Origin: a virus | Strand: one strand, 5' to 3' | DNA: 49,185 nucleotides | IMG/VR virus record: IMGVR_UViG_3300045988_177308 | Span: 1 to 49,185 of that record | Made by a program: the position numbers and the translations under genes | Part shown: one piece after another, positions 23,260 to 49,185 of the stretch | Numbering within the stretch: the stretch's first letter is position 1 | Layout of the letters: the number at the start of each line of letters is the position of its first letter | Notes under the pieces: generated by a model | Databases searched by the model: none | What the model was told of the DNA's origin: nothing | What the model saw: the letters and a program-made list of their open reading frames with translations, nothing else

Positions 23260-23314
23260 TGGGGTCGGCTCCTTTCTTTCTCCATGTCTCCATGATATCG
23301 AAAGGAGCCGACCC
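23260..23314 (-). promoter_or_regulatory. 15-bp perfect-stem hairpin between nrdG and downstream gene; 3' arm contains the SD of the downstream gene
   Basis: ggggtcggctccttt ... aaaggagccgacccc; on minus-strand mRNA the arm AAAGGAGCCGACCCC directly precedes AUG. Confidence 0.5.
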
Positions 23315-23345
23315 CGTCAAGCCGTCTGGCTGTGTCGTCCGTCAC

Positions 23346-24059
23346 TTATGCGAGCCTGAGGATATAGCGGTCGAAGCCAGCGGCCTGCACGCATTCAACG
23401 AGCTCCCGTCGGCGTTTCTCCCAGCGCTTCCTGTCCCACGAAGCTGCCACCAGCTGGAATGCCACCGGCGTACCCTCTGTGCGAGCCTCCTGCAAGGCGA
23501 AGGTGCGCACACCGGCCAACCTCAGCTGGGAAACGAGGTCTTCGAAATTGTAGTCGATGAGCGACTCGGGGTAGACGGTTGTGCGAACTTCGTAGTCAAC
23601 TCCGGACTCCAAAACGAGGTCAAGGGTCCTCCAGACTTTGTCTCCTCGCACACCGACGGCTTTCTTGTAGTCCTCGGGTCTGGCTTTTACGTCGAGCCCA
23701 ACCCAGTTGACGACGTGCATCATGCGCTCTAGCCGATCGGGGAACATCCCGGACGTGTGTACGCCGATCTCGAAACCGAGATCTGCGGCGGACTCGGCGC
23801 ACGGGATGACCGCCTCCTGGCGCAGTGCCTCTCCACCTGTGAAGACGACGCCGTCGAGCAGCCCGACGCGCCGCTTGAGAAACCCTTCGACTTCGCTCCA
23901 CGGAATGACGCCCGGTGTGCGATTGTCGAGGATGGCTGAGTTCTGGCAGTACGGGCACCTGAGCGGACAACCCTGGCAGAACACGGTGGCTACGAGCCGG
24001 CCGGGCCAGTCCACTGACGACAGTGGCACCAGCCCGGCCACCTGAAGGTCGTCGCTCAC
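23346..24059 (-). CDS. nrdG: anaerobic ribonucleotide reductase activating protein (radical SAM)
   Basis: CQGCPLRCPYC (CxxxCxxC) cluster motif; GTGA overlap with nrdD stop. Confidence 0.85.
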   Translation of the reverse strand: MSDDLQVAGLVPLSSVDWPGRLVATVFCQGCPLRCPYCQNSAILDNRTPGVIPWSEVEGFLKRRVGLLDGVVFTGGEALRQEAVIPCAESAADLGFEIGVHTSGMFPDRLERMMHVVNWVGLDVKARPEDYKKAVGVRGDKVWRTLDLVLESGVDYEVRTTVYPESLIDYNFEDLVSQLRLAGVRTFALQEARTEGTPVAFQLVAASWDRKRWEKRRRELVECVQAAGFDRYILRLA

Positions 24060-25846
24060 GCCTTCACGCTCTCCTTCTCCGTGAAACACGTCCTCTCGGC
24101 GTACTCACCTTTCTTCCCGATGTTAAACGACTGCACAGGCCTGAAGTACCCCATGACCCTCGTCCACACCTCACAGGCTTCACCGCACGTCTCACACACG
24201 AAATGCTCACCGGCGAGATAGCCGTGGTTGGGGCAAATCGAGAACGTGGGGGTGATGGTGATGTAGGGAAGGTGGAAGTTGGTGAGCGCCCTCTTAACCA
24301 ACTTGGCGCACACGGCACCGGACGAGATCTTCTCGTTCATGTACAGGTGCAGGACGGTGCCGCCCGTGTACATGGATTGAAGATCTGCTTGTTCTTCCAG
24401 AGCTTGGAAGGCGTCCTGTGTGTGCGACACAGGAAGCTGCGAAGAGTTCGTGTAGTAGGGGTTCTTATCGGTTCCCGCTTGGATGATGTTGGAGAAGCGC
24501 TTCCTGTCTTCCTTGGCGAACCTATACGTCGTTCCTTCCGCAGGGGTCGCCTCCAGGTTGTACAGGTTGCCAGTCTTCTCCTGATATTGTACGAGGCGCT
24601 CTCTCATGTGCGCGAGAAGCCTCTTCGCAAAGGCGTGGCCCCACTCGGTGGTGATATCTTCCTTATCGTGTGTGAAATTGCGGATGGCTTCGTTGACGCC
24701 GTTGACGCCGATCGTGGAGAAGTGGTTGCCGAGTCCCCCGAGGTAGCGCTTGCTATAGGGGAAGAGACCCCGCTCCATAAGCTCGGCGATCTTGATCCTC
24801 TTCTTCTCCAGGGTGGACGATGCAAGGTCCATGAGGTGGTCTAGCCTCTCGTAGAGCGCTTCTTCGTCCCCGGCCCACATGTAGCCGAGCCTCGCGGCGT
24901 TCACGGTGACGACGCCTATGGAGCCCGTGAGCTCGGCCGAGCCGAACAAACCGTTGCCCCGCTTCAGGAGCTCGCGCAGGTCGAGCTGGAGGCGGCAGCA
25001 CATCGAGCGGATCATGCCCGGGTCGAGCTCGGAGTTGATGAAGTTCTGGAAGTAGGGCAGGCCGTACTTCGCGGTCATATCGAACAGGGCGCGGGCGTTG
25101 TCCGACTCCCAGTCGAAGTCCTTCGTCATGTTGTAGGTCGGGATCGGGAAGGTGAAGACGCGGCCGTCGGCGTCGCCTTCCATCATGACCTCGATGTAGG
25201 CGCGGTTGATCGTGTCCATCTCGGCCTGGAGGTCCCCGTACGTGAAGTCGCACAGTACACCGCCTATAAGCGGATGGTTGTCCTTGATATCCTCAGGGCA
25301 CGTCCAGTCGAACGTCAGGTTCGTGAAGGGGCATTGGCTGCCCCAACGGCTTGGAACGTTGAGATTGAAAATGAGCTCTTGCATTGACTGCTTGACCTCC
25401 GCATAGTCCAGCCCGTCGAGCCGGATGAACGGCGCCATGTACGTGTCGAAGGACGAGAAGGCCTGGGCCCCCGCCCACTCGTTCTGCAGCGTGCCGAGGA
25501 AGTTGACGATCTGGCCGCAGGCCGACCTGAAGTGACGCGGCGGATCGGAGGCGATGGCCCCCGCGATGCCGTTGAATCCCTCTTCGAGCAGGCGGCGCAG
25601 CGACCAGCCCGCACAATAGCCCGCGAGCATGTCGAGGTCGTGGATATGGTAGTCGCCGTTTCTGTGTGCGGCTCCTTCTTCTTCGCTGTACACCTTCGAC
25701 AGCCAATAGTTCGCGATCGTCTTGCCGGCGGCGTTGAGAATGAGGCCGCCGACGGAGTAGCCCTGGTTCGCGTTCGCGTTGACGCGCCAATCCGCCTGCT
25801 CCACGTACTCCTCCACTGTGGAGATGGGGTCGATGTTAACAGTCAA
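24056..25846 (-). CDS. nrdD: anaerobic ribonucleoside-triphosphate reductase (class III)
   Basis: 596 aa; glycyl-radical motif RVMGY near C-terminus, C-terminal CxxC...CxxC zinc ribbon. Confidence 0.95.
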   Translation of the reverse strand: MTVNIDPISTVEEYVEQADWRVNANANQGYSVGGLILNAAGKTIANYWLSKVYSEEEGAAHRNGDYHIHDLDMLAGYCAGWSLRRLLEEGFNGIAGAIASDPPRHFRSACGQIVNFLGTLQNEWAGAQAFSSFDTYMAPFIRLDGLDYAEVKQSMQELIFNLNVPSRWGSQCPFTNLTFDWTCPEDIKDNHPLIGGVLCDFTYGDLQAEMDTINRAYIEVMMEGDADGRVFTFPIPTYNMTKDFDWESDNARALFDMTAKYGLPYFQNFINSELDPGMIRSMCCRLQLDLRELLKRGNGLFGSAELTGSIGVVTVNAARLGYMWAGDEEALYERLDHLMDLASSTLEKKRIKIAELMERGLFPYSKRYLGGLGNHFSTIGVNGVNEAIRNFTHDKEDITTEWGHAFAKRLLAHMRERLVQYQEKTGNLYNLEATPAEGTTYRFAKEDRKRFSNIIQAGTDKNPYYTNSSQLPVSHTQDAFQALEEQADLQSMYTGGTVLHLYMNEKISSGAVCAKLVKRALTNFHLPYITITPTFSICPNHGYLAGEHFVCETCGEACEVWTRVMGYFRPVQSFNIGKKGEYAERTCFTEKESVKA

Positions 25847-38094: not shown

Positions 38095-38648
38095 TTAGCC
38101 GCGTCTCCGTCTTTGAAAAGCAGCTCGACAGCATGACCCGCTGCGGTTTCGATGTATATCGCGTCCCCTTGGTCGAGGATGTGTTCCACAGGCGAGTCCA
38201 CCGCCAACCAATTCACGAAGACGCCCGTCAGGCCATCGGCCTCCTCCGTGAACACCACACCGGTGGCCAAAAGGGCATATTTCTTATATTGGTTGACATT
38301 CATCGAGCTGTGCAGGTTCTGTCCGTACAGCTCGCCGAGCAGCCACTCCTTCCGGGTGATGTTCCGAAGCTCCACGTGTGCGATAACGTCGCCATACTCG
38401 TTGAAGAGTCGAACCTGCCTGAACTGATCGTCGTACCTCACGTAGCTCACAAGCACATCGAGATTGTTCAAGCCATAGCGCCCCACTCTATAACCCCAAT
38501 CTCTCCTTTTGTTACACAAAGGGAGAGCTACGTAGCTGGACAGGCTGGTGAAGAACAAGCGACCATCCATGACCTCCATGCCCATCAATGGGAGGCCTTC
38601 AAGCCTTTTCAAAGCATCCACGTAGTCCTGTGGTTTTTCGAAGCTCAT
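38088..38648 (-). CDS. hypothetical protein (186 aa)
   Basis: ATG preceded by gagagaagggattaatcaat. Confidence 0.5.
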   Translation of the reverse strand: MSFEKPQDYVDALKRLEGLPLMGMEVMDGRLFFTSLSSYVALPLCNKRRDWGYRVGRYGLNNLDVLVSYVRYDDQFRQVRLFNEYGDVIAHVELRNITRKEWLLGELYGQNLHSSMNVNQYKKYALLATGVVFTEEADGLTGVFVNWLAVDSPVEHILDQGDAIYIETAAGHAVELLFKDGDAANE

Positions 38649-38698
38649 ATTGATTAATCCCTTCTCTCGGTGATATGCGTATTAAGAAGTGTATACGG

Positions 38699-38728
38699 AA
38701 AGGGCGGGGGCCGTCAAGCCCCCGCCCT
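38699..38728 (-). terminator. intrinsic terminator (minus strand)
   Basis: gggcgggggc/gcccccgccc 10-bp stem, followed on minus strand by TTTCC. Confidence 0.6.
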
Positions 38729-38748
38729 GTGAAATACGTCACTGTTTG

Positions 38749-39610: not shown

Positions 39611-40071
39611 ATTTTGAGGCACCTCACTTTGAACGTTCTGACGAACTCGTCTTTCTTCATGTCAAACGGCTCACCTGTATCCGGCTCGCAGTGGATCGTC
39701 TTAGTCTCGCGGTTATACGTCAGGTCGCCTAAGAAAAACTCGTTACCTGAATCCAACGACACAGCTACACAACCATGCAACATCTCCGTATAGGGGTTCG
39801 GCTCGTTGTCCTCCACCGTGAACATGTTCGGCCAGTCTTCCGGCACCAGCTCCTGCAACACAGTGTTGTAGCACATGTCAGGCGGAAGGCGGTGGTGCGC
39901 AAGCAGAACATCCCCATAGGGGTTCGTGTACGGCACCGCCTCATCGCACGTCGTCAAGTTGAAATGCATCGGCAGTTCTTCGTCGAAGCGGGGACTGTTC
40001 GCGTCCACGCACACGAAACCGCGGTTCCTGATGTAGGCGCACAGGGAATCCTCGTAATCGTAGAACAGCAT
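39607..40071 (-). CDS. hypothetical Cys-rich protein (154 aa)
   Basis: SD aaaggaggg 7 nt upstream. Confidence 0.5.
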   Translation of the reverse strand: MLFYDYEDSLCAYIRNRGFVCVDANSPRFDEELPMHFNLTTCDEAVPYTNPYGDVLLAHHRLPPDMCYNTVLQELVPEDWPNMFTVEDNEPNPYTEMLHGCVAVSLDSGNEFFLGDLTYNRETKTIHCEPDTGEPFDMKKDEFVRTFKVRCLKI

Positions 40072-40084
40072 GTTAACCCTCCTT

Positions 40085-40573
40085 TCAGCAAGGCTCGACG
40101 ATGACCAACCACGGCTCGTCAGAGGTCTCATCTTCGAAGAACGACGTGATCACGTCCGACGTCGTGTCCGTCTCTTCGATCACGGACACCGCACCGATCT
40201 CAGACTTGAGCTCCACCGAAGCGGCGGGAGAGAGGACGATGGATACCTTATCCAGGCCCTCTTCGAACCACCGGCTGACGACGAAAGACACGCACACCCC
40301 CGCAGGCTGTGCGGAAACCGTGACCTTCTCCACTTCATGGTCCATTATCAAACCGAACCGCGTGCTGTCTTCATCGTATTCTGTCGTCACAGACGCCAAC
40401 TCCACATCGCCGACGTCGAAGAGCGTCGTCTTACAAACCCAATCACCCGTGTAGCGCTTCGTACAGGAGGACACCCACTGCTCCTTCGGTGTCACCGGAA
40501 TCTCCAAGCTTCTCACGTTCGGTTTCTTAGCCAGTTCTGCCAACAGCCCTGGTGTGTAATTAGTCCCTATCAC
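40085..40573 (-). CDS. hypothetical acidic protein (162 aa)
   Basis: GTG start after gaaaggagaaagagc. Confidence 0.5.
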   Translation of the reverse strand: MIGTNYTPGLLAELAKKPNVRSLEIPVTPKEQWVSSCTKRYTGDWVCKTTLFDVGDVELASVTTEYDEDSTRFGLIMDHEVEKVTVSAQPAGVCVSFVVSRWFEEGLDKVSIVLSPAASVELKSEIGAVSVIEETDTTSDVITSFFEDETSDEPWLVIVEPC

Positions 40574-40607
40574 GCTCTTTCTCCTTTCGTTCCGTGTCGT
40601 GTCATGC

Positions 40608-41045
40608 TTAAAGCAGGTAGTCGGCTTCGTCCTCGGAGTAAGGCCGGATCGCCGTCACAGTAGCCGGACCGTACGCCACCGCCGATATGCGGCGCCCAAA
40701 CTCGCAGTTTGGGCCCACCTGCACATCTGCGAACGGGAAGAGGTCAACAGGCTCCTCGCGTGTGCAGTCGTCGTCTTTCAGGATTGCGTAAAGCCGGCCG
40801 TCTTCCGCGTGACGCGTACCGACCAGTTTCTCGCCGAAGAGCGAATCGAACTGCGTGCTCACGATGTCCGACTTCAGCGTCATGAATTCGAACCCAGCGG
40901 CGTTGTAGAACCGCACGGTCGAGCCCTCGGCTGTGCGAGTGTCGACGATCGAAGCCGCCTGGCGGTCGACGACGTCAAGATGATGTGTAACGGTTTTCGC
41001 ATTGAACCGAGTGGCTTCGCTCTCAACAGTGGGCATTGTCCCCAT
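40608..41045 (-). CDS. hypothetical protein (145 aa)
   Basis: ATG after agagaaaggaacacatc. Confidence 0.5.
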   Translation of the reverse strand: MGTMPTVESEATRFNAKTVTHHLDVVDRQAASIVDTRTAEGSTVRFYNAAGFEFMTLKSDIVSTQFDSLFGEKLVGTRHAEDGRLYAILKDDDCTREEPVDLFPFADVQVGPNCEFGRRISAVAYGPATVTAIRPYSEDEADYLL

Positions 41046-41099
41046 GATGTGTTCCTTTCTCTCGGGTCGGCGGTTGTCCCGCCGTAGTTACAGTCTAGG

Positions 41100-41134
41100 C
41101 GCACACGGGGCGGCAGTCAAGCGCCCCGTGTGCG
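41100..41134 (-). terminator. 13-bp GC hairpin
   Basis: cgcacacggggcg/cgccccgtgtgcg. Confidence 0.45.
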
Positions 41135-41141
41135 ATGTACG

Positions 41142-41771
41142 TCACATTCCCCTTTGCAAGCCCGTGGTCCATTCGGCGATCTCCGCAGCCACGGAATCGG
41201 GCGTGTCGACGGGGGGGTCCACGACGATCGGTATGAACCTCGACAGCTCCCCCGCGACGAACGCGTTCGTCAGGAACGTCCGGTACGCCTCAGTCACCGC
41301 GAGGGGGTCGTAGCCGTCGGGGTCCGGGTAGTCCGGGTCCGTCAACTCGGCGGGGTCGCGGGGCATCAGCACGAACGTCGTCAGCGGAACGCGGTTCAGC
41401 CAGTTCAGCGTGAGCGCTACGTTCTCCGGTATGGGCTCGCCCCGCAGCGAGGCGTACACCTCGCTGCTGAGCGCCCACCTGTCCAGAATGTACAGCTGTT
41501 CTTCGCTCGCACTCGTCGGAGTGTCGGGGAACAGCACGGGCTCCGGTCGGAAGGAGAGCCAGTTCTCCATATCCCTCGCGTAGTCCTCCGCCTTCAGGCG
41601 GTGGTTTTCGCTTTGTGCACACACAGTCAGCACGTCCGTGGGGAAGTGCCGTATGCGCACATCGGAGTAAGAGGGGGCGGCGGTGCGGCTTTGAAAGAGC
41701 TCTTTCAGGGCTGCTGCTACAGTCGACTTCCCCACTCCGTCGGGACCCTCCAGTGCTATGTAAACTGCCAT
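41142..41771 (-). CDS. tmk: thymidylate kinase
   Basis: P-loop IALEGPDGVGKST characteristic of dTMP kinase. Confidence 0.8.
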   Translation of the reverse strand: MAVYIALEGPDGVGKSTVAAALKELFQSRTAAPSYSDVRIRHFPTDVLTVCAQSENHRLKAEDYARDMENWLSFRPEPVLFPDTPTSASEEQLYILDRWALSSEVYASLRGEPIPENVALTLNWLNRVPLTTFVLMPRDPAELTDPDYPDPDGYDPLAVTEAYRTFLTNAFVAGELSRFIPIVVDPPVDTPDSVAAEIAEWTTGLQRGM

Positions 41772-41790
41772 CGTCTATCGCTCCTTTCGT

Positions 41791-42300
41791 CTATCGCATA
41801 TGCGGCGCGGGCGTGCAGGATATGCCTGTCGCACACCCCTCTTCCGAGAACGCCTCGAACCACGTGTAGTCTTCCACTGCGGTCCACACCGTGTTCGTCG
41901 TGGGCTTACCGGGCCACAGCACATGGTAATCGGGGAGGGACACGGCCCCCTCGTCGATCACAGCGCCCGGCGCTATCCCGTAGCCCAAGTCGCACACGCA
42001 GTCCAACGGCAGGTTCTTGTGCACAACCGCATCCACTTCTATCAAGGGGTTGGAGAGCCTATCGCACAGCTCCAACGTCGCCTTCATTGGCATTGTGCGC
42101 ACACGGACGAGCCCCACCGTGAAGGGCTTCCGCTTCTCTTCATGCGGCTGCACGCATATCGAGCGCGCAAAGGGACTACGGCCGTACAGCACTACGGAAC
42201 CGGAGCGCACAGTGCCGTGGCGGTCCATCGCGGCGGGTTCTATCGTGCGGCCCGGCAGCGTCGCCAGGAGAGCGATGTCGAAAAAGGCTACGATCGTCAC
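41791..42300 (-). CDS. hypothetical protein (about 169 aa)
   Basis: Start ambiguous (GTG 42300 or GTG 42312). Confidence 0.4.
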   Translation of the reverse strand: MTIVAFFDIALLATLPGRTIEPAAMDRHGTVRSGSVVLYGRSPFARSICVQPHEEKRKPFTVGLVRVRTMPMKATLELCDRLSNPLIEVDAVVHKNLPLDCVCDLGYGIAPGAVIDEGAVSLPDYHVLWPGKPTTNTVWTAVEDYTWFEAFSEEGCATGISCTPAPHMR

Positions 42301-42301
42301 G

Positions 42302-42740
42302 TTACGCCGCACCCCCTTCCGCGTTCACGTCACCCAAGTCGTCCAAGCAGAACGGCCACCCGCACACAGACAGGTGCGGGTTCAACCCCGTCGCTTCGAT
42401 TATCCCCTTCACGGCATCCCGTGCGTTCAAACCGCGGGCGTTGACTTCTACGGCCTCGTCGCCCCGGTCCAGGGACGATGCGGAGAGAGGGGTGTTGTTC
42501 AGCACGATGTGTGTCCTGGCTTGACTAGTCAAGCGAACCAGCGGGGTGTACATCACCTGCAGTTCGCAGTAGAAGACGTTCAGCCGTTGGAAGAGCCACA
42601 CGCGCACAGCGGATTCGACGTCGGGTGTGAGGTTGTGAACGAACACCCACCTGTGAACGTCTTTTTTCGTCGAGGCGGGCCATTGTGCGCTGCATGAAGG
42701 CGTTCCCCTGCGAGCGTGCGGGCATCGCATAGTGCGTCAT
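42302..42740 (-). pseudogene. gene interrupted by a +1 frame change at an A6 tract (42662-42667); N-terminal 27 codons in one frame (ATG 42740, strong SD agaggaagggg), remainder in the 42302..42730 frame
   Basis: Third-position GC stays high only if the reading frame switches at GACGAAAAAAGAC; each frame alone gives Arg/Pro-rich wrong-frame-like sequence on the other side of the tract. Confidence 0.4.
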
Positions 42741-42745
42741 GTTGT

Positions 42746-43321
42746 TTATCCCCTTCCTCTAATGTCTTTCGCCATCTTCACCGCAGCCCGATATTCAGGC
42801 CACTGCTTCTCGTAGGGCCGGCGGTCCGCATCCCAGTAGTCCTTGTAGCTCAGCCCGGGGTTGGCCGCTATGAACTCGGCCAGAGAAGTGTAGAAGGCCT
42901 CCTTGAAGCGCTTGGCGCGTAGTTTGCGCGCCAGTTTTGAGGGGTCCGCCGGGTCTTTTCCGCGCAGGTCCACTTCGGACAGCGGGTTTGATTTGAACTC
43001 GCGGAACATGAGCCTTAAGCGCTTTCTCGCCGATATGTTGTCCCGTTCAGCGCCCGACAGCATCGCATCGTCCAGAGACGACGGCGTGGCGACGGCCACG
43101 CCGAGAGCTTCGAGTGCGGCCTTCAGAGAGCTGTAGCGCACAGGGGGGAGGAACTCCTCACCCCCTGTTTGCATCAGCTCGGGCACTATCAGGAGCGCCT
43201 TGTCGGCGTAGTTCGAATTGAGAACGATTCTCACTCCGTATTCGCTCTCCACGTCGGCTCGCAGTCCCTGTTCGTCCAGGTTTTCGTCGGCGACTTCGAT
43301 CGCCACGGCAATCCGTTTCAT
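42746..43321 (-). CDS. first gene of leftward early operon, hypothetical (191 aa)
   Basis: ATG 43321 after gagaggagaaatcgag. Confidence 0.55.
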   Translation of the reverse strand: MKRIAVAIEVADENLDEQGLRADVESEYGVRIVLNSNYADKALLIVPELMQTGGEEFLPPVRYSSLKAALEALGVAVATPSSLDDAMLSGAERDNISARKRLRLMFREFKSNPLSEVDLRGKDPADPSKLARKLRAKRFKEAFYTSLAEFIAANPGLSYKDYWDADRRPYEKQWPEYRAAVKMAKDIRGRG

Positions 43322-43355
43322 CTCGATTTCTCCTCTCACTCGAAAATGTATTTTC

Positions 43356-43422
43356 GATCGATTTCGACTCACATTGCGTGATCGATTTCAACTCGATTTT
43401 ATCCTAGGGACGGATCGATTTC
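43356..43422. repeat. three direct copies of GATCGATTTC (A/G-extended 16-mer) plus two partial copies in the leader of the leftward operon
   Basis: Copies at 43356, 43380 and 43413; third copy sits inside the promoter spacer. Confidence 0.55.
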
Positions 43423-43429
43423 AAGTCAA
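43401..43429 (-). promoter_or_regulatory. leftward promoter TTGACT-17-TAGGAT
   Basis: Read on minus strand: -35 at 43429-43424, -10 at 43406-43401. Confidence 0.45.
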
Positions 43430-43455
43430 ATCGTGGAATGTGAATTTGGTCACAG

Positions 43456-43477
43456 TAGTGTTGTGAGGGGTTGTGTT
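43456..43477 (+). promoter_or_regulatory. extended -10 element TGtTATAAT (rightward)
   Basis: gtgttataatc; no good -35. Confidence 0.3.
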
Positions 43478-43572
43478 ATAATCACGCGCCCGCGCGCACC
43501 CGACCCGGCGCACACCACATAGATCGGCGAGATGTCGCGGGTTCTGTGTCAAGCTCGGCCCCGGGGCGGTGG

Positions 43573-43624
43573 AAATTCTGACAGTGACTGTCAATTGACA
43601 GTGACTGTCAGAATTTCGATACAT
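43573..43624 (+). promoter_or_regulatory. twin 15-bp palindromic operators TGACAGtgaCTGTCA x2 flanked by inverted gaaattc/gaatttc, overlapping a TTGACA -35 (43595-43600) with TACAT-type -10 about 18 nt downstream
   Basis: Exact repeat 43579-43593 and 43596-43610 separated by 2 nt. Confidence 0.6.
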
Positions 43625-43952
43625 CTTTGAATTGAGAATCATTCTCACTAAGGAAAATACTCCTAATACACCACCCCCACACATACTACTACAACGTTAT
43701 ATATCCCTATTTGTATATTCCTTGTAATCCCTTGGTTTCCCTCCTTTGAAATTACAAAACCTCTTGGATCAGGGCAATGTGCTTGATCAATAAGGCGATG
43801 TCACACCCCGGGTATACCCAGCACGGTTTGCACTTGATGCTGTTTAAGAACAACGTGTTCTGCGTCTGTTCAGTTTTGTCACATTCTTCACACGCCCCCG
43901 CTGCGTGGGCTGTGCGCCTGGGGGTGTGCGCCTCCTCGCGGGCCCAGTTGCG

Positions 43953-44060
43953 CCTCAGGATCACGAGGTTGCCCTCTGAGGCGTTTTCAGGGTCGCCCCG
44001 GTAGGGTCGCTTGGGTAAGGGGCTGAAATCGCCTCAGAATCGATCCTCGTGATCCTGAGG
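43953..44060. repeat. 16-bp perfect inverted repeat CCTCAGGATCACGAGG / CCTCGTGATCCTGAGG, 76 nt apart, with a nested 9-bp inverted repeat
   Basis: Read directly; loop contains agggtcgc x2. Confidence 0.5.
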
Positions 44061-44150
44061 GGGTGCCGCTCGACCGCCGGTGCTGTGTGGTGTGCGCCTC
44101 GGGACTGTCCGTTCCGCTCGACCGCCGTTCTAATTTCCCTTATCTTTGAG

Positions 44151-44222
44151 CCCCGAAATTCGAAAATGGCCCTCTTTGTACCCGAAACCTGCCCCCGAAA
44201 TTCGAAAAGGGGCTTCTTTGTA
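44151..44222. repeat. two tandem ~41-bp direct repeats CCCCGAAATTCGAAAA..CTTTGTA
   Basis: 44151-44180 and 44192-44222. Confidence 0.5.
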
Positions 44223-44253
44223 ACGTTTAATGACAACCTTTACCTACGTAACC

Positions 44254-44379
44254 GTAAGTTACTGCTACGTAGGTGTAAGTTACCCTGTGGTAGGTTACGC
44301 TGGTGTAGGTTACTGGTGAGTAAGTTACCCAGTGGTAGGTTACGGCTTCGTAGGTGTAACCTACTGCGAGGTAGGTTAC
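44254..44379. repeat. iteron-like array: eight 9-mers GTA(A/G)GTTAC (one inverted) with 15-bp periodicity
   Basis: Copies at 44254, 44275, 44290, 44305, 44320, 44335, 44356 (inverted) and 44371. Confidence 0.7.
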
Positions 44380-44427
44380 CGTGGCGTATGGCGCTCAGAA
44401 ATGTGGTGAAGGACACACCGCTGGGGC

Positions 44428-44456
44428 TTGACACGGGGGGTGGCGGTTGATAGAAT
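44428..44456 (+). promoter_or_regulatory. consensus promoter TTGACA-17-TAGAAT (cassette 1)
   Basis: Perfect -35, 17-nt spacer, TAGAAT -10, followed by conserved leader agagagaaaggaaacccca. Confidence 0.7.
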
Positions 44457-44495
44457 GGAGGTACAACAAAGGGGAAAGAGAGAAAGGAAACCCCA

Positions 44496-44582
44496 ATGGA
44501 CATCGAAATCGACTTCTTCGAGGAGCTCGGCGGCTACTACACCGCAGACCTGGCAGACGTCCTGGAAGACTTCGAAGGCTGA
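44496..44582 (+). CDS. tiny acidic ORF (28 aa, MDIEIDFFEELGGYYTADLADVLEDFEG)
   Basis: ATG 7 nt after extended SD, in identical cassette context to the larger genes; followed by GC hairpin. Confidence 0.35.
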   Translation: MDIEIDFFEELGGYYTADLADVLEDFEG

Positions 44583-44585
44583 CCC

Positions 44586-44613
44586 GAAGGCCCCCGCCCC
44601 GGCGGGGGCCTTC
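44586..44613 (+). terminator. GC hairpin after tiny ORF
   Basis: gaaggcccccgcc/ggcgggggccttc. Confidence 0.45.
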
Positions 44614-44817
44614 CCATGCCCGCAGACGCGCCCCAGAATGGCCCCTGAGGCGCCTTCGGAGCCGGGGTGGGGCCACCCTACCGGCGAAGGCCCGCCAGGC
44701 TCTCAGGGGGCCGTCTGCGAGCTCGGAGGGGCGCCCCCGAAGGCGGGGGCTGGGCGCCTCCGGAGACGGCCCCGAGCAATTACGCAACGTCGGTGTTGCG
44801 AAAATCCCGGAACTCAA

Positions 44818-45043
44818 AATGTGAGCTTGGTCTCACTTTCGTGAAATCGGGACTAAAGTCCTAGCTCGAGGAACCATGTGAGCAATCTCACACTCGGAGA
44901 GGCTCTCGAGCAACCATGTGAGAAACATCACAATGTGAGATACATCACGCTCGGAGGGGCTCTCGAGGCTCTCGAGCAACCATGAAAAATACATTTTCCA
45001 GGGGCTCTCGAGCAACCATGAAAATGTGACACACACCATACCC
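44818..45043. repeat. four tandem degenerate repeats (CTCGGAGRGGCTCTCGAGCAACCATG...) containing five ATGTGA(G) motifs and palindromes TGTGAG-N4-6-CTCACA
   Basis: Palindromes at 44821-44836 and 44878-44893; ATGTGA at 44819, 44876, 44916, 44932 and 45022. Confidence 0.5.
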
Positions 45044-45050
45044 GAGCGGC

Positions 45051-45085
45051 TTGACACGGCGCCTCCGGCTGTGCGAGGATAGAGC
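45051..45085 (+). promoter_or_regulatory. cassette 2 promoter (TTGACA, then TGcGAGGAT extended -10 at 18 nt)
   Basis: -35 perfect; -10 assignment uncertain (TAGAGC lies 23 nt downstream). Confidence 0.35.
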
Positions 45086-45116
45086 CATCGGAACAACAGA
45101 GAGAAAGGAAACTCCG

Positions 45117-45338
45117 ATGACCGCGAAGTACCCCTACAGCCAGGCCCTGGCGAAGTCGCTCACCGAGAAGCTCGGGGGCCTCGCCTTCGTCCTGCCCGAC
45201 GGCGCAGTCCAGGCCGATACCCCCGACGGCACCCTGACCGTCTACGCCGACGGCGCCGTGAGAGTTCGCGAGTGCGGCGAAACCGAAGCCTGGCCCACCC
45301 TCCGCAGCGCCGTCGCCGACTGGGGCGTGGAAGTGTGA
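45117..45338 (+). CDS. small early protein (73 aa)
   Basis: ATG after agagaaaggaaactccg. Confidence 0.6.
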   Translation: MTAKYPYSQALAKSLTEKLGGLAFVLPDGAVQADTPDGTLTVYADGAVRVRECGETEAWPTLRSAVADWGVEV

Positions 45339-45347
45339 GCTACCCCA

Positions 45348-45389
45348 CTCCGGAGGGGCTTGACAGCCCCTCCGGAGGACCGCTAGAAT
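45348..45389 (+). promoter_or_regulatory. cassette 3: 12-bp inverted repeat ctccggaggggc/gcccctccggag with TTGACA as its loop, then 18 nt and TAGAAT
   Basis: Read directly; hairpin begins 10 nt after upstream stop. Confidence 0.6.
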
Positions 45390-45424
45390 GAAGACATCGG
45401 AACGAAGAGAGAAAGGAAACTCCG

Positions 45425-45739
45425 ATGAACACCTGGAAAGTCGCCAACGCCGTCGTCCGGCACCTCGAAGCCACGATCCCCGTCTACGACGTCTCCGAGC
45501 GAGGCTACAGCCTCTACGTCAGCCTCGTAGACGGCCGCGACTTCATCGTCGACGCCCCGTTCGAGGGCGACGTCAGGATCACCCCCGGTGTGCGCACCTC
45601 CGAAGGCGGCCTGCAGCTTCTCGAAGACCTGGAAGCCGAGCTCACGGACGCCGGCTTCGACGTCCGCCAGGTGCGCTGCAGCCGAACCCTCGCCACCGAG
45701 CTCCGTGTGCGCGACGACGTAGGCGGGTGGGACTGGTGA
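45425..45739 (+). CDS. small early protein (104 aa)
   Basis: ATG after agagaaaggaaactccg. Confidence 0.65.
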   Translation: MNTWKVANAVVRHLEATIPVYDVSERGYSLYVSLVDGRDFIVDAPFEGDVRITPGVRTSEGGLQLLEDLEAELTDAGFDVRQVRCSRTLATELRVRDDVGGWDW

Positions 45740-45909
45740 GGCGTTTCTGGGCGTCCGTCGCCGTCGCAGCCGGCATCCTGGCCGGCTGGGGCTGCGGCGA
45801 GGATCTCGGCCGCTGGGACGCCTACGCGGGCATCCGCGACGAACCGACGGTGCTGGGCTTGACTGTGATACAGGTCATACACTACGGGCTTGACACAGCC
45901 GCCCGATAG
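45736..45909 (+). CDS. possible small membrane ORF (57 aa)
   Basis: GTGA overlap with upstream stop; hydrophobic FWASVAVAAGILAGWGCG; reads through cassette 4 promoter. Confidence 0.3.
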   Translation: MRRFWASVAVAAGILAGWGCGEDLGRWDAYAGIRDEPTVLGLTVIQVIHYGLDTAAR

Positions 45910-45919
45910 CCACTAGACT
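45890..45919 (+). promoter_or_regulatory. cassette 4 promoter TTGACA-18-TAGACT
   Basis: Followed by agagatatcag...agagaaaggaaaagctg. Confidence 0.55.
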
Positions 45920-45955
45920 AGAGATATCAGCGAAGACGAGAGAAAGGAAAAGCTG

Positions 45956-46081
45956 ATGCATACCACCACCTTCATCCCCGAAATCGACGTCCCCGACTTC
46001 GTCGCCAGCCTCCGGGCAGACCGCGAGCGCCAGCGAGCACGACGCCGGAGCCGCCGTCAGAACCGCGGATGGGAGGCCTGA
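45956..46081 (+). CDS. tiny ORF (41 aa, Arg-rich C-terminus)
   Basis: ATG after cassette leader. Confidence 0.35.
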   Translation: MHTTTFIPEIDVPDFVASLRADRERQRARRRSRRQNRGWEA

Positions 46082-46084
46082 GCG

Positions 46085-46204
46085 ATGACCTGGCTCGACT
46101 TCGCACAGGGCATCTGGGACGCCTTCTACGGCCTCATGTCCACCTCCGAAGAGCTCGTGGAGCACCTTCCGACGCCGCTGCAGTGTTTCTTCGACTGGTG
46201 TTAA
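46085..46204 (+). CDS. tiny ORF (39 aa)
   Basis: ATG 4 nt after upstream stop, SD gggagg. Confidence 0.3.
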   Translation: MTWLDFAQGIWDAFYGLMSTSEELVEHLPTPLQCFFDWC

Positions 46205-46215
46205 CGACATCACAC

Positions 46216-46254
46216 CGAAGGCCGCTTGACAGCGGCCTTCGGGCCGACTAGACT
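46216..46254 (+). promoter_or_regulatory. cassette 5: inverted repeat cgaaggccgc/gcggccttcg with TTGACA loop, 17 nt, TAGACT
   Basis: Read directly. Confidence 0.6.
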
Positions 46255-46290
46255 AGAGATATCAGGAAGACAGAGAGAAAGGAAACCCTG

Positions 46291-46926
46291 ATGATCAACC
46301 GTTACCTCACCGCCGTCTCCGACGCCGACATCCTGGACGCCGCCTCCGACGCCCTCGTGGATGCGGGGTGGAGCCTGGACGAAGACCGAGAGCTACCTTT
46401 CGAGGCGGACTACTACGAGGATCCGGAGGCCGCCTTCGAGGTTGACTCCGAGTGGAGCGAGATCCAGGCCGACGCCGTCGGCAGGCTCTGGGACCGGCTC
46501 TCCGACGAAGAGCGGGTGGAGCTTTGGCTGCACGACTGTGCGGGGCAGGATCCCGACGAGCCCGTCGACGCCGAGACGGTCTGGGAGCGGATGGAGGCCG
46601 CCGTGCTAGAGCGGCTCGGGAGCGTCTACGAGGACACGGGCGCCTCCGTCACGGAGGCCTGCACCCGAGCTCTGAGGCTGACTTCGGCCAAGGCCCTGGC
46701 CAGGGTACTGGGCCTGTACGAAGCCGCCCGAGCGGATGCCCGGAGGCACTGGGGCGGGTCTTCGAAGGTGCGGACCTTCGACGTCGAGCACGGCACCGTG
46801 GTGGTCCGGAGCGAAGGCGGCGCCGTGGAGGCTCGACTGAGGCCGGCCTTCGAGGAAGGCGATGACGAAGGCGCCGTCATCGTGGAGATGCTCGGGGACG
46901 CGCTCCGCGAAGTCGGGCTCGACTGA
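46291..46926 (+). CDS. highly acidic early protein (211 aa)
   Basis: ATG after agagagaaaggaaaccctg; Asp/Glu-rich throughout. Confidence 0.7.
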   Translation: MINRYLTAVSDADILDAASDALVDAGWSLDEDRELPFEADYYEDPEAAFEVDSEWSEIQADAVGRLWDRLSDEERVELWLHDCAGQDPDEPVDAETVWERMEAAVLERLGSVYEDTGASVTEACTRALRLTSAKALARVLGLYEAARADARRHWGGSSKVRTFDVEHGTVVVRSEGGAVEARLRPAFEEGDDEGAVIVEMLGDALREVGLD

Positions 46927-46972
46927 CGTTTCACGTGAAACGGATTGGGGCCGCCGCCGAAGGCGGCGGCCC
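46927..46972 (+). terminator. double hairpin after acidic gene
   Basis: cgtttcacgtgaaacg palindrome then gggccgccgcc/ggcggcggccc. Confidence 0.5.
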
Positions 46973-47123
46973 GGAAAGGGGGGTGCTATTGAGAATCAAT
47001 ATCACTAAGATCTGGGTTGGAATAGTTGGACTCATGTACGCGGCGTGGTTCGTCTGCGTCATCGTCGAAGCGATAAGTTACCCTACGGTAGGGTAGGTAA
47101 TACAAGTTGGAGTGGTAGGAAAA

Positions 47124-47165
47124 GTAGCCCCTAGGACTAACGTCCTAGGGGCTACTTGTGTTTTT
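47124..47165 (+). terminator. rho-independent terminator
   Basis: 12-bp stem gtagcccctagg/cctaggggctac followed by ttgtgttttt. Confidence 0.75.
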
Positions 47166-47203
47166 GGTGGGAAAAGTTGGAATTTTTGGATGGGTGGGTC
47201 GAC

Positions 47204-47232
47204 TTGCATGGGGGGACCCAACCGCATACATT
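47204..47232 (+). promoter_or_regulatory. candidate promoter TTGCAT-17-TACATT
   Basis: Read directly; upstream of low-GC gene at 47282. Confidence 0.4.
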
Positions 47233-47281
47233 AATCGCTATTTTTCACTACTGGAAATCATACCGAGGTACGATCGCTATA

Positions 47282-47656
47282 ATGGTCTCTGTGCACGACA
47301 TAATCCTCATCGCCGACCACCTTCTAGGGGCGCCAGCAGTGGGCTTAGGCGCCCTTATAACCGCTATTGCGACGCTTTACACGTCATTGAAGACCAATAG
47401 GAAGGTCCTTAGCGTCAAACAAGACATGGAAAACAACCATGGGAGTTCCTTACGGGATGCGATAGACCGCATAGAGAACAACACCAAAGTCTTGACGGAC
47501 CTCGTGCACATGCACACAGGGCAGTTGGATGACATCCAGTGTGCTGTGCGCCGACACGACGAAGAGATAAAATCGTGGCATGACAAGCCCACGGCCCCCG
47601 CAGCACCCCCTTGTGCGCATACGGAAGATCTACAACGAGGCGACGATAACGCCTAA
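47282..47656 (+). CDS. membrane-anchored protein (N-terminal TM helix, coiled C-terminal domain), lower GC
   Basis: Hydrophobic IILIADHLLGAPAVGLGALITAIATLYTSL; upstream of lysis genes. Confidence 0.5.
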   Translation: MVSVHDIILIADHLLGAPAVGLGALITAIATLYTSLKTNRKVLSVKQDMENNHGSSLRDAIDRIENNTKVLTDLVHMHTGQLDDIQCAVRRHDEEIKSWHDKPTAPAAPPCAHTEDLQRGDDNA

Positions 47657-48557
47657 CCCGACACCCCCCTACGACTCGACGCTCCTCCTGACACCTCCGC
47701 CTCCACCAAAGCCTAACCCGGACCAGCCGCTGGGCGCTACAGCGGCCAGCTTGGCAGCCCCCATCGAGGCCCTTTCCCCTCTGCTCAAGATAGAGCGGGT
47801 GCCCGTCCCCTCCACGGACCCGGACACAACTAAACATAACCGCCTACAGGTGGTGTATAGCCTGTCGGCGAATATCGTCACCACAGCCCAGCTTCGCAAC
47901 AAGGACAACACCCCGCCGACCCCGGACAACCCCACCAGCGAGCCGAACCCGTGGGAGGTGGGCTGGCTGCTGTGGTGCTTCAGCCCGGATCCGACGCACC
48001 CATATGACCCTAGCCCGACTAGCAACAGCAATTTCCGCTTCTACGCCTTAACCCTAAAGCCCAACGGCTGGGAGGTCTCCAAACAGGACCCTTCCTACAA
48101 AGGAGGTCAGCGCTTCCTGAAGTCGAACACCGACACCGATCCGAGGAAGTTCCCCCCGCACAACCCGGCCGACGAAAACGAATTCCGACTGGATCCCTAC
48201 TCTGTTATCGTAAACGCATGCCACGAATACCCGCTGGGGACGACCCCGGCCGACGTGCAGAATGACATCGTCCCGGCCAATCGGAACTCCGAGGCTGGCA
48301 ATAAAGCTCGACTAACCCCCTCTAGGAACGTCTTCCATATTTTCGTGGAGAGTCAGCTGCTGGCCACCGTTGTCGACACTGAACGCCCTCTACCCCCGCA
48401 CATTCCGGCGTTCTACGCGGAGGATGCCCGTGTGCGCTTCTCTCACATGTGGCATGCGACCCCCAAGCGCCCCTCCCTTCAAACCACCCCTGCAGAATAC
48501 GACCCTCTCTCCCTCCATGCGACGGGCTACCAGCCGCAGGGCGTGGTATGGTTCTAG
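47580..48557 (+). CDS. proline-rich protein (325 aa), overlaps upstream gene by 77 nt in +1 frame
   Basis: First in-frame ATG at 47580; C5 runs at the overlap. Confidence 0.45.
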   Translation: MTSPRPPQHPLVRIRKIYNEATITPNPTPPYDSTLLLTPPPPPKPNPDQPLGATAASLAAPIEALSPLLKIERVPVPSTDPDTTKHNRLQVVYSLSANIVTTAQLRNKDNTPPTPDNPTSEPNPWEVGWLLWCFSPDPTHPYDPSPTSNSNFRFYALTLKPNGWEVSKQDPSYKGGQRFLKSNTDTDPRKFPPHNPADENEFRLDPYSVIVNACHEYPLGTTPADVQNDIVPANRNSEAGNKARLTPSRNVFHIFVESQLLATVVDTERPLPPHIPAFYAEDARVRFSHMWHATPKRPSLQTTPAEYDPLSLHATGYQPQGVVWF

Positions 48558-48559
48558 CC

Positions 48560-49117
48560 ATGGAAGAGAGCCCTACATCCAAACGGGATTACGACCCGAA
48601 ATATCTAGACGGCTTGACGTATGGCTTCTATGACGCCTACCTGGCGCAAGAGGCGGGCAGGCCGCCGATGTACAACAGGGACCCCTCTATCTACGAACCG
48701 CATTACAGTCCGGCGTGCCGCTCGCTGTGTGGGTTCAACCCGCCGATACCGACGCACGACGGGGCCGCTATATCTAGGGGGGAATTCTCAGACGAGATAG
48801 AGGAATTCAGCGTGCAGTTGGCCGCACTCAAGTCGCTGATCGATGCGGCATGGCGCATTGTCCCTGGCAACGACGACCCGCTTCTGCGTCGATACCCCTA
48901 CGCTGTGCGCCACATGGAAGACAGCTGGGTGGAATTCCGGCTGTCGAACGACTATACGACGACCCCTGTGCGGCTGCAGCCTGGCGAAGGCTACGACTTC
49001 CTCCGCAACCGTAAAATCCCGGCGCACAGCCAGCGGCCTGACCGAGCTAGTTTCGTGCCGTATACTGAGGTGAAAGCACTTCTAGCTAAAAGGAAGGAGA
49101 CGGATGACGCAGGCTGA
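48560..49117 (+). CDS. hypothetical protein (185 aa)
   Basis: ATG 3 nt after upstream stop; ends 11 nt into endolysin gene. Confidence 0.5.
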   Translation: MEESPTSKRDYDPKYLDGLTYGFYDAYLAQEAGRPPMYNRDPSIYEPHYSPACRSLCGFNPPIPTHDGAAISRGEFSDEIEEFSVQLAALKSLIDAAWRIVPGNDDPLLRRYPYAVRHMEDSWVEFRLSNDYTTTPVRLQPGEGYDFLRNRKIPAHSQRPDRASFVPYTEVKALLAKRKETDDAG

Positions 49118-49185
49118 CGTGCAGCGTAACGCCATAGTGGCGTGGATGGCGAAGCACGACGGTGACTTCGGCTACACCAACGACT
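49104..49185 (+). CDS. endolysin (lysin A), N-terminal 27 codons; gene continues at window start (circular junction)
   Basis: ATG at 49104 preceded by aaggaggagacgg; reading frame runs into the terminal 55 nt that are identical to nt 1-55, in frame with ORF 7..777. Confidence 0.55.
   Translation, partial: MTQADVQRNAIVAWMAKHDGDFGYTND

Follow-up and report, generated by a model that had tools for sequence, protein, structure and literature searches.

Five near-identical intergenic units at 44402-46293 of a 49,185-nt virus sequence (IMG/VR record IMGVR_UViG_3300045988_177308, analyzed over its whole length and called the window here) each precede a small gene, and the question raised by this locus is what such repeated units are for. 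Each unit, or cassette, was composed of TTGACA, a 17/18-nt spacer, a -10 element, about 20 nt, the motif AGAGAAAGGAAA, 5 nt and ATG. Module anatomy, conservation, covariation and fixed geometry, all of them observed here, supported the explanation that a single composite module for early/middle transcription and translation is, on balance, probably present in at least nine copies, of which these cassettes are five. The module begins with a 16-bp tGTGA(C)-N4-(G)TCACa palindrome, which mostly overlaps the stop codon that ends the preceding gene, and continues with GGGC-TTGACA, a 17/18-bp spacer and TAGAMT, a near-consensus promoter for the principal sigma factor of the host. Transcription would start at an A 7 nt past the -10, and the leader, about 30 nt long, would pair its first 6 nt (AUCNNN) with NNNGAU at the start codon, leaving the ribosome-binding site (RBS) AGAAAGGA in the loop.

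Exact copies of AGAGAAAGGAAA lay on the plus strand, as do all features of the five cassettes, at 44479, 45100, 45408, 45939 and 46274, and no other exact copy was present in the window; with up to one mismatch allowed, 10 matches were found against 0.09 expected. The initial annotation had described repeated units of a promoter and a leader, each ahead of a small gene, and this description held, with promoters of the sigma-70/sigmaA type; the repeats were far above chance. The promoter consensus that it assigned to all five sites, TTGACA-17/18-TAGA(A/C)T, was found at 44428, 45360, 45890 and 46226 and was missing at 45051, where no TAGAMT follows at 17 or 18 nt. In cassette 2 (core promoter 45051-45080) the TTGACA is followed after 18 nt by a weaker -10, GAGGAT (45075-45080), and the TAGAGC that was probably counted before sits 23 nt from the -35. 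The core promoters of cassettes 1 (44428-44456) and 4 (45890-45919) read TTGACA-17-TAGAAT and TTGACA-18-TAGACT, and the -10 elements of cassettes 3 and 5 are TAGAAT (45384-45389) and TAGACT (46249-46254). The pattern TTGACA-N16-19-TAGANT had 4 matches in the window, all on the plus strand, against 0.01 expected, and 10 promoter-like sites were found within 40000-49185 against 2.3 expected. An A occupies the 7th nt past the -10 in all five cassettes and is the predicted start (A44463, A45087, A45396, A45926 and A46261).

A sixth related copy had been placed at 1711. The gene downstream of that site does encode dihydrofolate reductase (DHFR), as had been stated, and here the likeness ended: the site has TTTGCG as its -35, has only TAGAGT and ATATCAGC in common with the cassettes, and lacks AGAGAAAGGAAA, the leader stem and the upstream palindrome. 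The region 1640-1783 is a second divergent promoter region. Opposite the weak rightward DHFR promoter it holds TTGACT-17-TACAGT in leftward orientation, with AGAGAAAGGA and then an ATG at about 1640; neither of the two promoters has an upstream palindrome.

The TGTGA-N6-TCACA palindrome is a part of the module that the initial annotation overlooked. A 16-mer of this kind starts 26 bp (once 27) ahead of the -35 in each of the five cassettes: TGTGGTGAAGGACACA at 44402-44417 in cassette 1 and TGTGACACACACCATA at 45025-45040 in cassette 2 (both matching 8/10 positions and 26 bp ahead), TGTGAGCTACCCCACT at 45334-45349 in cassette 3 (8/10), TGTGATACAGGTCATA at 45864-45879 in cassette 4 (9/10) and TGTTAACGACATCACA at 46199-46214 in cassette 5 (9/10), the last of which contains the stop codon TAA. 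When the whole window was scanned for good -35/-10 pairs, each of the nine strong promoters had a palindrome scoring at least 8/10 at an offset of 25-27 from the -35, and the weak look-alikes had none. This class of nine was made up of the five cassettes and four leftward promoters on the minus strand, at 43429, 41120, 38717 and 23320. The first of these (43401-43454) carries the perfect palindrome TGTGACCAAATTCACA at 43439-43454 and TTGACT-17-TAGGAT, without a hairpin at its -35. The second (41043-41146) has its palindrome at 41131-41146, 13-bp arms around TTGACT (41100-41134) and TAGACT, and its leader holds a different 5'-proximal hairpin, followed by GAGAGAAAGGAAC and an ATG at 41045. In the third (38646-38743), the palindrome at 38728-38743 is followed by 11-bp arms around TTGACG (38701-38728), TACACT and an ATG at 38648, and in the fourth (23258-23346) the palindrome at 23331-23346 comes right after the nrdG stop codon, with TTGACG-17-TATCAT and an ATG at 23260.

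Across the window, 32 TGTGA-N6-TCACA sites with up to 2 mismatches were counted against 19.3 expected, 12 of them within 43439-46214. Non-homologous upstream contexts had only the palindrome half-sites in common, while the N6 varied. The same was seen in a promoter-less, unstranded array at 44820-44949, between the first cassette gene and cassette 2, with sites at 44820, 44877, 44917 and 44934, two of them perfect; in the window and 18 related loci the array comprised 4-6 sites with half-sites kept and a variable N6. Conserved half-sites around a free N6 have the signature of a protein-binding DNA site. The array itself may serve as a hub of regulation, or it may be a decoy that draws off the palindrome's putative binder.

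The distance between palindrome and promoter was conserved far beyond this phage. In a spacing scan of IMG/VR (GTGA-N6-TCAC, a gap, TTGAC, N18-19, TAGANT, counted as stretches), a gap of 11-12 nt was found in at least 120 stretches, as compared to 3 at 6-7 nt, 12 at 8-10 nt, 11 at 13-15 nt, 9 at 16-17 nt, 15 at 18-20 nt and 35 at 21-23 nt, so that the preferred spacing stood at least about 12-fold over the background of other spacings. The matches at 11-12 nt came from at least 30 sequence families with G+C contents of 0.36-0.67, some loci holding two or three copies, and their flanks, which the search had left unspecified, were enriched to TGTGAC..GTCACA; flanks were also enriched at gaps of 21-23 nt (16 of 19 families). 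The main and minor peaks, about 10 bp apart, suggest a factor that contacts one face of the helix. Among these sources, other phage families with a palindrome-N10-TTGACA arrangement (loci L120-L221) often held a second palindrome inside the spacer, for example GGCGTGTCGACACGCC in a family of G+C 0.65 and AAGTGTGTAACACTT in one of 0.47, and some of them were jumbo contigs of 180-400 kb.

What might bind such a site is indicated by its sequence. Rex operators, TTGTGAA-N4-TTCACAA, have the same core. The palindrome equals the general CRP motif, which is of the TGTGA-N6-TCACA type (PMC10187061), and in its GTGAC-N4-GTCAC form it equals the Crp consensus of S. coelicolor, GTG(N)6GNCAC (PMC3520106). 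The palindrome would therefore serve a dimeric helix-turn-helix factor working from one helix face, for which a host protein of the Crp/GlxR type is the leading candidate because of the match to the Streptomyces consensus GTG-N6-GNCAC. The only protein of the window that was also found in other families of this promoter class was an NrdH-like redoxin (about 10 kb compared per locus); no palindrome sites were found near host nrdD loci, and BLAST of two other families of the class against cultured phages gave no match. A reading of the palindrome as an NrdR box was dropped, as the half-sites of that box stand in the reverse order. It is possible, and we say so tentatively, that these sites mark a widespread and undescribed class of phage early promoters, in which a host factor of the Crp family or a Rex-like one is locked near -54, with a minor class one helical turn upstream, next to a consensus -35. 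If so, many unrelated phages would tie their first transcription to the cAMP or redox state of the host, or recruit an abundant host factor as a universal promoter booster; in the present family a clamped leader, circularizing the 5' end onto the start codon, would complete a context-independent expression unit for early ORFans, possibly anti-defense genes.

The initial annotation also overlooked a hairpin in the leader, which in cassettes 2-5 has the form (C/U)AUCNNN, loop, NNNGAUG, with a 6-7-bp stem: CATCGGA/TCCGATG in cassette 2 (45086-45119; AGAGAAAGGAAA in the loop at 45100-45111, ATG at 45117) and in cassette 3 (-10 and leader 45384-45427; arms 45395-45401 and 45421-45427, Shine-Dalgarno sequence 45408-45419, ATG at 45425), TATCAGC/GCTGATG in cassette 4 (45925-45958; Shine-Dalgarno sequence 45939-45950, ATG at 45956; minimum free energy -7.6, z -2.8) and TATCAGG/CCTGATG in cassette 5 (46260-46293; Shine-Dalgarno sequence 46274-46285, ATG at 46291). 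The leader of cassette 1 (44471-44498) differs, with a stem of GGGG (44471-44474) and CCCC (44491-44494) around AGAGAAAGGAAA at 44479-44490 and the ATG at 44496. The 5' arm begins at the 6th nt past the -10 in 91 of 127 copies of the cassette family, and the A at the 7th is the predicted 5' end of the mRNA; the last base of the 3' arm is the G of the start codon. By an anchored, gap-free count (a MAFFT alignment put gaps within the 3' arm and was unsuitable), 370 of 378 cells (98%) were paired in 54 unique leaders, as opposed to 26-39% when the partner was slid. Among these leaders pair 5 was G-C in 30 and A-U in 23, and pair 7 was A-U in 22, G-C in 16, C-G in 7, G-U in 1 and A-C in 8. Orthologs of the cassette 4 gene were preceded by four different complementary stems among the relatives.

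The loop enclosed by these stems is 15-22 nt long and rich in purines (57% A, 31% G), and U accounts for just 4 of 1047 nt. Within it lies AGAAAGGA, whose complement forms the eight 3'-terminal bases (UCCUUUCU) of actinobacterial 16S rRNA, and the motif stands 5-8 nt ahead of the ATG. On the plus strand AGAAAGGA had five copies, all at the cassettes, and on the minus strand ten; the window thus contained two types of RBS, AGAAAGGA ahead of early/middle genes and AAGGAGG ahead of late structural genes. We read the leader stem as a clamp that would hold the polypurine RBS loop open regardless of the downstream open reading frame (ORF). Binding of a CsrA-type protein to GGA in the hairpin loop was dropped as a candidate, as Actinobacteria are not known to possess CsrA.

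A different hairpin surrounds the -35 element. As had been claimed, TTGACA of cassettes 3 and 5 is the exact loop of perfect inverted repeats: in cassette 3 (45348-45377) the 12-bp arms CTCCGGAGGGGC (45348-45359) and GCCCCTCCGGAG (45366-45377) enclose TTGACA at 45360-45365, and in cassette 5 (46215-46242) the 11-bp arms CCGAAGGCCGC (46215-46225) and GCGGCCTTCGG (46232-46242) enclose TTGACA at 46226-46231. Folded in context, these reached -33.7 kcal/mol (z -3.2) and -30.0 (z -4.2), respectively. Each repeat follows a gene end, as had also been noted, with the correction that a distance of 9-10 nt separates it from the stop codon (45336-45338 and 46202-46204). Among the 127 family cassettes, 62 had stems of at least 6 bp around the -35, compared to 0.7% of random positions; 50 of the 62 measured at least 10 bp, and in 43 the loop was exactly the -35 hexamer. 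Compensatory variants (CCGGAG/CTCCGG, CCAGAG/CTCTGG, CCGAAG/CTTCGG, GAGTCC/GGACTC, and GGGGCG/CGCCCC to GGGGCA/TGCCCC) indicate that the base pairing is under selection. The same arrangement of a hairpin around the -35 was found at the unrelated phage loci L222 and L255.

Whether this hairpin belongs to the promoter or to the preceding gene was judged gene by gene in the window, as an approach by longest open frames was confounded by spurious frames in G+C-rich DNA. Of the five promoters located directly behind a stop codon, those at 45360, 46226, 41120 and 38717 have a perfect stem, and the one at 23320 on the minus strand has at most a bulged 7-bp stem, read by eye. The stem was absent at all four promoters that do not follow a stop (44428, 45051, 43429 and 45890, the last of which is read through by an ORF). 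Because this pattern tracks the preceding stop codon, the -35 hairpin appears to be tied to the upstream gene end and not to the promoter. The proposal that hairpin formation modulates promoter use was thereby left without support, as the hairpin is missing from 4 of 9 promoters of the class and goes with the upstream gene end instead. The hairpin may plausibly terminate the upstream transcript, but it could just as well protect or process the 3' end of that RNA. Two further hairpins were observed. A U-less one of -31 kcal/mol lies at 44586-44613, after the first cassette gene, and at 23258-23320 on the minus strand the promoter spacer GGGGTCGGCTCC is perfectly complementary to GGAGCCGACCCC just ahead of the ATG at 23260; both arms would be present only in read-through RNA, where they would hide the RBS, and this gene may therefore be translated only from the transcript of its own promoter.

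The cassettes are not unique to this genome, uniqueness having been set beforehand as a reason to abandon the idea of such units: a pattern scan of IMG/VR yielded modules at 36 loci on some 30 contigs, which measured 21-49 kb and in most cases 45-49 kb, with 129 copies of the cassette, 127 of them unique. The extraction pattern required the GAGAAAGGA core. In 19 of 19 genomes compared, the five cassettes stood in identical order with orthologous cargo, and no gain, loss or movement of cargo between cassettes was found among them. Cassette 1 alone had an alternative cargo, a 28-amino acid (aa) ORF or, in 3 relatives, a 69-aa ORF, while the cargo of cassette 5 occurred as two homologous variants (5a and 5b). 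A check proposed earlier had been whether cargo genes differ across related phages while cassettes are conserved; the cassettes were conserved, and the gene-cassette system with differing cargo found no support, as content was fixed in the 19 genomes. Because modules, order and cargo agree across about 30 related contigs, the five modules appear to be fixed early promoters and not a mobile cargo system. Exchange was seen at another level: four identical 45-nt segments from -10 to ATG were found ahead of both the cassette 4 gene and the 5a gene in different genomes, and in L001 and L003 cassettes 4 and 5 had one leader in common, which is evidence that promoter/leader segments have been exchanged between these two cassettes.

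Together these parts suggested how the module might work. Host RNA polymerase would fire all modules early in infection, yielding many short, abundant transcripts that encode small acidic ORFan proteins. The leader clamp would keep the RBS single-stranded whatever ORF comes next, and the 5'-end pairing in four of the five cassettes would probably also shield the mRNA from 5'-end-dependent decay. Stem-loops at the 5' terminus are known to stabilize bacterial mRNAs (Emory 1992, Bouvet & Belasco 1992 and Hambraeus 2002, all cited in PMC3997798). The G+C-rich -35 hairpin would act in the transcript of the upstream gene, where it would terminate without a U-tract, insulate or protect the 3' end. 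It would wrap the -35 only because the palindrome keeps a fixed distance from the -35 within an intergenic space of about 85 nt, so that one arm would be confined to the 10 bp ahead of the -35 and the other to the initial 11-12 bp of the spacer.

Several observations weigh against this explanation. Start sites, termination and timing are all read from sequence throughout. No U-tract follows any -35 stem (tails GACCGCUAGAAU and GCCGACUAGACU), and of the two elements of an intrinsic terminator only the hairpin was present. U-less terminators have reportedly been described for actinophage phiC31, and the literature is divided over such terminators in Actinobacteria. Purified mycobacterial RNA polymerase fails to terminate at U-less hairpins (PMC3993855). 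The stems are nearly pure Watson-Crick, with 3 G-U against 4 A-C, and therefore selection at the RNA level and at the DNA level are indistinguishable. The center of the palindrome lies 18.5-19.5 bp ahead of the first -35 base, i.e., near -53.5/-54.5, a non-classical position for CRP, whose classical positions are -41.5, -61.5 and so on; therefore, a factor other than Crp may bind here, or the bound factor may have no activating role. The gap equivalent to -61.5 (about 18 nt) was at background level in IMG/VR. Near-consensus -35 and -10 elements normally need no activator, and Pfam and PHROG scans of about 47 phage ORFs gave no Crp-like or operator-binding candidate, the sole helix-turn-helix match being a likely small terminase. 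The leader stems are weak (-3.5 to -7.6 kcal/mol) and mostly no better than shuffles (z -0.8 to 0.0 in 4 of 5), and their covariation may partly reflect the copying of whole leaders between cassettes. Finally, the GGGG/CCCC stem of cassette 1 encloses the RBS, yet neither the 5' end nor the AUG, and 5'-end protection therefore cannot be the common denominator.

Other explanations start from the same observations. By regarding the palindrome as the operator of a phage-encoded regulator, either an early shut-off repressor or an activator, and the array at 44820-44949 as a nucleation or autoregulatory site, the at least 13 sites per genome, including the conserved promoter-less array of 4-6 near-perfect sites, could be accounted for. 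A consensus promoter has more need of a repressor than of an activator, many of the early ORFs belong to no recognizable family, and multi-copy phage operators usually serve phage regulators, as do the stoperators of L5 and the conserved inverted repeats of phiC31. Stoperators are also mentioned in PMC3203893. Such a regulator is possible, but we doubt it, as the same site occurs at the same distance in at least 30 unrelated phage sequence families across the G+C range given above, in which the NrdH-like redoxin was the only protein found in common with the window over the roughly 10 kb compared per locus; moreover, a site at -54 does not overlap the core promoter, and enrichment with a 10-bp period (gaps of 11-12 and 21-23 nt) is typical of factors touching RNA polymerase from one face. 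At the RNA level, the leader stem-loop might be an operator at which a protein binds the GAGAGAAAGGAA loop and shuts off all early translation, in the manner of T4 RegA or the coat-protein operators of RNA phages. The AUG does lie within the stem, and the loop core is conserved beyond the need for 16S pairing, GAGAGAAAGGAA being present in 5/5 window cassettes and little changed across relatives, though its GAGAAAGGA core was demanded by the extraction pattern; the same argument was made for the start-associated sequences (SAS) of Cluster K mycobacteriophages (PMC3203893). An RNA operator nevertheless seemed unlikely, since AGAAAGGA also serves internal early/middle genes without a stem, loop length is variable (15-22 nt), pairing in the stems is very weak, and no RNA-binding protein was identified.

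Mobility offers another account of the likeness among cassettes, which would then be portable patches of homology that shuffle, delete and import ORFans, similar to the PeSL elements (promoter-early stem-loops) of phages RB49 and phi1 (PMC2839356). The leaders common to cassettes 4 and 5 described above would fit, as would the two alternative cargos of cassette 1, the varying length of the cassette 3 gene (47-104 aa) and chimeric cassettes recognized by inspection, one with the upstream half of one type and the downstream half of another, and one in L028, where a cassette 5a upstream context and a cassette 3-like stem are joined to the 5b leader and cargo. Gene order and content were nevertheless constant in 19 genomes, with no cargo moved, gained or lost; scans of cultured phages and of 185,579 bacterial and archaeal genomes gave no match and hence no sign of spread beyond the lineage, and selection on palindrome geometry and stems explains the likeness without mobility, which made recombination modules improbable. 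The remaining account, in which topology modulates the promoter as the inverted repeat extrudes as a cruciform or hairpin in supercoiled or single-stranded phage DNA and hides or exposes the -35, was the idea of the initial annotation. Perfect arms of 10-13 bp with near-total Watson-Crick pairing, as if both strands must pair, and a loop equal to the -35 hexamer in 43 of 62 stems are what such a switch would display, and hairpin promoters do exist in phage N4. On the other hand, G+C-rich 12-bp arms with a 6-nt loop extrude poorly, the repeat is missing at 4 of 9 promoters of the same class and tracks the upstream gene end, the canonical -35/-10 geometry indicates ordinary duplex recognition by the host holoenzyme, and no virion RNA polymerase gene was present among the scanned ORFs. 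We consider a DNA-level switch very unlikely. The composite module, with its palindrome, promoter and clamped leader, remained our preferred explanation.

Among known systems, the PeSL cassettes of T4-type phages appeared to be the closest in kind, with the same outline, two features absent and two parts added. In RB49 and phi1, a strong sigma-70 promoter and a GGGG...CCCC stem-loop, which may overlap the -35 or -10, stand before ORFans, and both terminator activity and recombination into mini-circles were shown experimentally (Arbiol et al. 2010, PMC2839356). Similarly, the present modules are repeated intergenic cassettes of about 60-100 bp with an early promoter, a G+C-rich stem-loop and an RBS ahead of small ORFans; perfect stems of at least 11 bp were found in 2 of 5 cassettes and at 2 minus-strand promoters, the stem-loop is read, here from sequence alone, as a terminator or insulator of upstream transcription, and neighboring cassettes showed signs of exchange. 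The phage group is unrelated, however, with no sequence similarity, and PeSLs flank genes that differ between RB49 and phi1, whereas the present cargo is invariant among relatives. PeSLs have an AT-rich block upstream of the -35, whereas the 40 nt upstream are G+C-rich here and hold the TGTGA-N6-TCACA palindrome; this palindrome at a locked distance and the covarying leader hairpin, which joins the 5' end with the AUG, would be the parts that are new relative to PeSLs. Integron-like cassettes differ further, as no recombinase was found in the scanned ORFs and the cargo, where attC-like sites and variable cargo define an integron, was invariant.

The SAS and ESAS elements of Cluster K mycobacteriophages (Pope et al. 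2011, PMC3203893) also come from actinobacteriophages, in many copies conserved across relatives, and consist of a 12-13-nt motif over-conserved for 16S pairing, 3-8 nt before the ATG of non-structural genes, often with an upstream inverted repeat. The 13-bp SAS sequence GGGATAGGAGCCC differs from GAGAGAAAGGAA, and the present motif is an analogue and not a member; it is tied to a consensus promoter, unlike SAS, and its leader arms covary as RNA pairs, whereas ESAS repeats have no RNA pairing and were proposed as DNA sites. Class I CRP/GlxR promoters resemble the modules in a 16-bp TGTGA-N6-TCACA-type site upstream of the -35 with helical-repeat spacing (here gaps of 11-12 and 21-23 nt), but their sites are centered at -61.5, -71.5 and so on with a weak core, whereas here the center is near -53.5/-54.5, the core is near consensus and the binder is putative. 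Stabilizer stem-loops in the ompA, papA and aprE leaders combine a stem at or next to +1 with a strong RBS, as the present leader would if its predicted +1 is right, but the present stem is short and weak and includes the AUG. Intrinsic terminators share the G+C-rich hairpin right after the stop codon and differ in their U-tract. Hairpin promoters of the phage N4 type were not indicated, given canonical -35/-10 hexamers and no phage RNA polymerase in the scanned ORFs.

At about 49 kb, the window looks to be an entire phage genome. The plus strand carries the structural genes at 2.6-21 kb, with a terminase nearest to those of Stenotrophomonas, Microbacterium and Arthrobacter phages (38-53% identity). 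A leftward block at 21-43.4 kb encodes a C5 methylase, NrdG, NrdD, ThyA, the NrdH-like redoxin, PolA, a DUF3987 primase-helicase, a helicase and a dCTP deaminase, so that the replication genes lie on the arm opposite to the five cassettes, and about 1 kb of divergent non-coding DNA separates this block from the rightward five-cassette block. This virulent-type siphovirus encodes PolA, primase-helicase, NrdDG, ThyA and DHFR of its own, and Pfam and PHROG scans of most, not all, larger ORFs revealed no integrase or recombinase. Its NrdD (24056-25846, minus strand) shares 86% identity with the NrdD of Actinobaculum sp. oral taxon 183 F0552 and 80-81% with the NrdD proteins of other Actinomycetaceae. 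This likeness suggests a recent acquisition of the gene from the host and indicates the host clade; because of these identities the host is probably an oral member of the Actinomycetaceae. BLAST of the cassette region against cultured phages, in near and distant mode, gave no match, and a scan of 185,579 bacterial and archaeal genomes for the cassette pattern gave none either, and hence no prophage copy.

If the modules work as proposed, their motif set would flag the first-expressed ORFans, candidates for host take-over or anti-defense, in uncultured phages of human oral Actinomycetaceae. The module would also represent a natural compact expression cassette, with a factor site, promoter, RNA-end structures and an insulated RBS in about 110 bp, and a possible genetic part for Actinobacteria. 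The geometry-locked Crp-like site, extending to many phage families, appeared to be the most novel element. Binding by a host Crp-type factor would place phage early transcription under a global regulator of the host, with a site geometry for which Crp has no described precedent, and the -35-wrapped hairpins bear on whether U-less hairpins end transcripts in Actinobacteria.

The cargo genes were all ORFans in Pfam and PHROG scans. Cassette 1 drives g1 (44496-44582; 28 aa, isoelectric point (pI) 4.05, no basic residue, no family match) and cassette 2 drives g2 (45117-45338; 73 aa, no family match), whose stop codon TGA lies within the cassette 3 palindrome. The g3 gene (45425-45739; 104 aa) is overlapped by g3b (45736-45909; 57 aa), which has a hydrophobic N-terminus and a frame that runs through the palindrome and -35 of cassette 4, a cassette without a -35 hairpin, as is cassette 1. 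Cassette 4 is followed by g4 (45956-46081; 41 aa, basic C-terminus) and g4b (46085-46204; 39 aa, acidic, pI 4.05), and cassette 5 by g5 (46291-46926; 211 aa, pI 4.2, 51 D+E, no family match). Most of these proteins are small and very acidic (g1, g4b and g5 among them), reminiscent of DNA-mimic or anti-restriction early proteins, with no family match.

A canonical terminator at 47122-47157 (unstranded; 16-bp stem with U-tract), the sole strong canonical site listed by the terminator scan, closes the rightward early block. A tRNA scan and an Rfam search of the window gave no match at gathering thresholds, with chance-level matches only at E up to 1. The non-coding DNA between the divergent early promoters (43455-44400, about 1 kb) contains a 34-nt palindrome, CTGACAGTGACTGTCAATTGACAGTGACTGTCAG, at about 43578-43612 and tandem repeats of the GTAGGTTAC type at 44244-44343, with GAAATCGAT repeats at 43340-43420 nearby; it may be a replication origin or packaging region. 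The stretch 44583-44800 is G+C-rich and dense in hairpins, too variable and indel-rich among relatives to point to a conserved RNA, and had no Rfam match. Past the terminator, in a stretch of lower G+C content, a proline-rich 325-aa ORF (47580-48557) without a family match overlaps neighboring ORFs.

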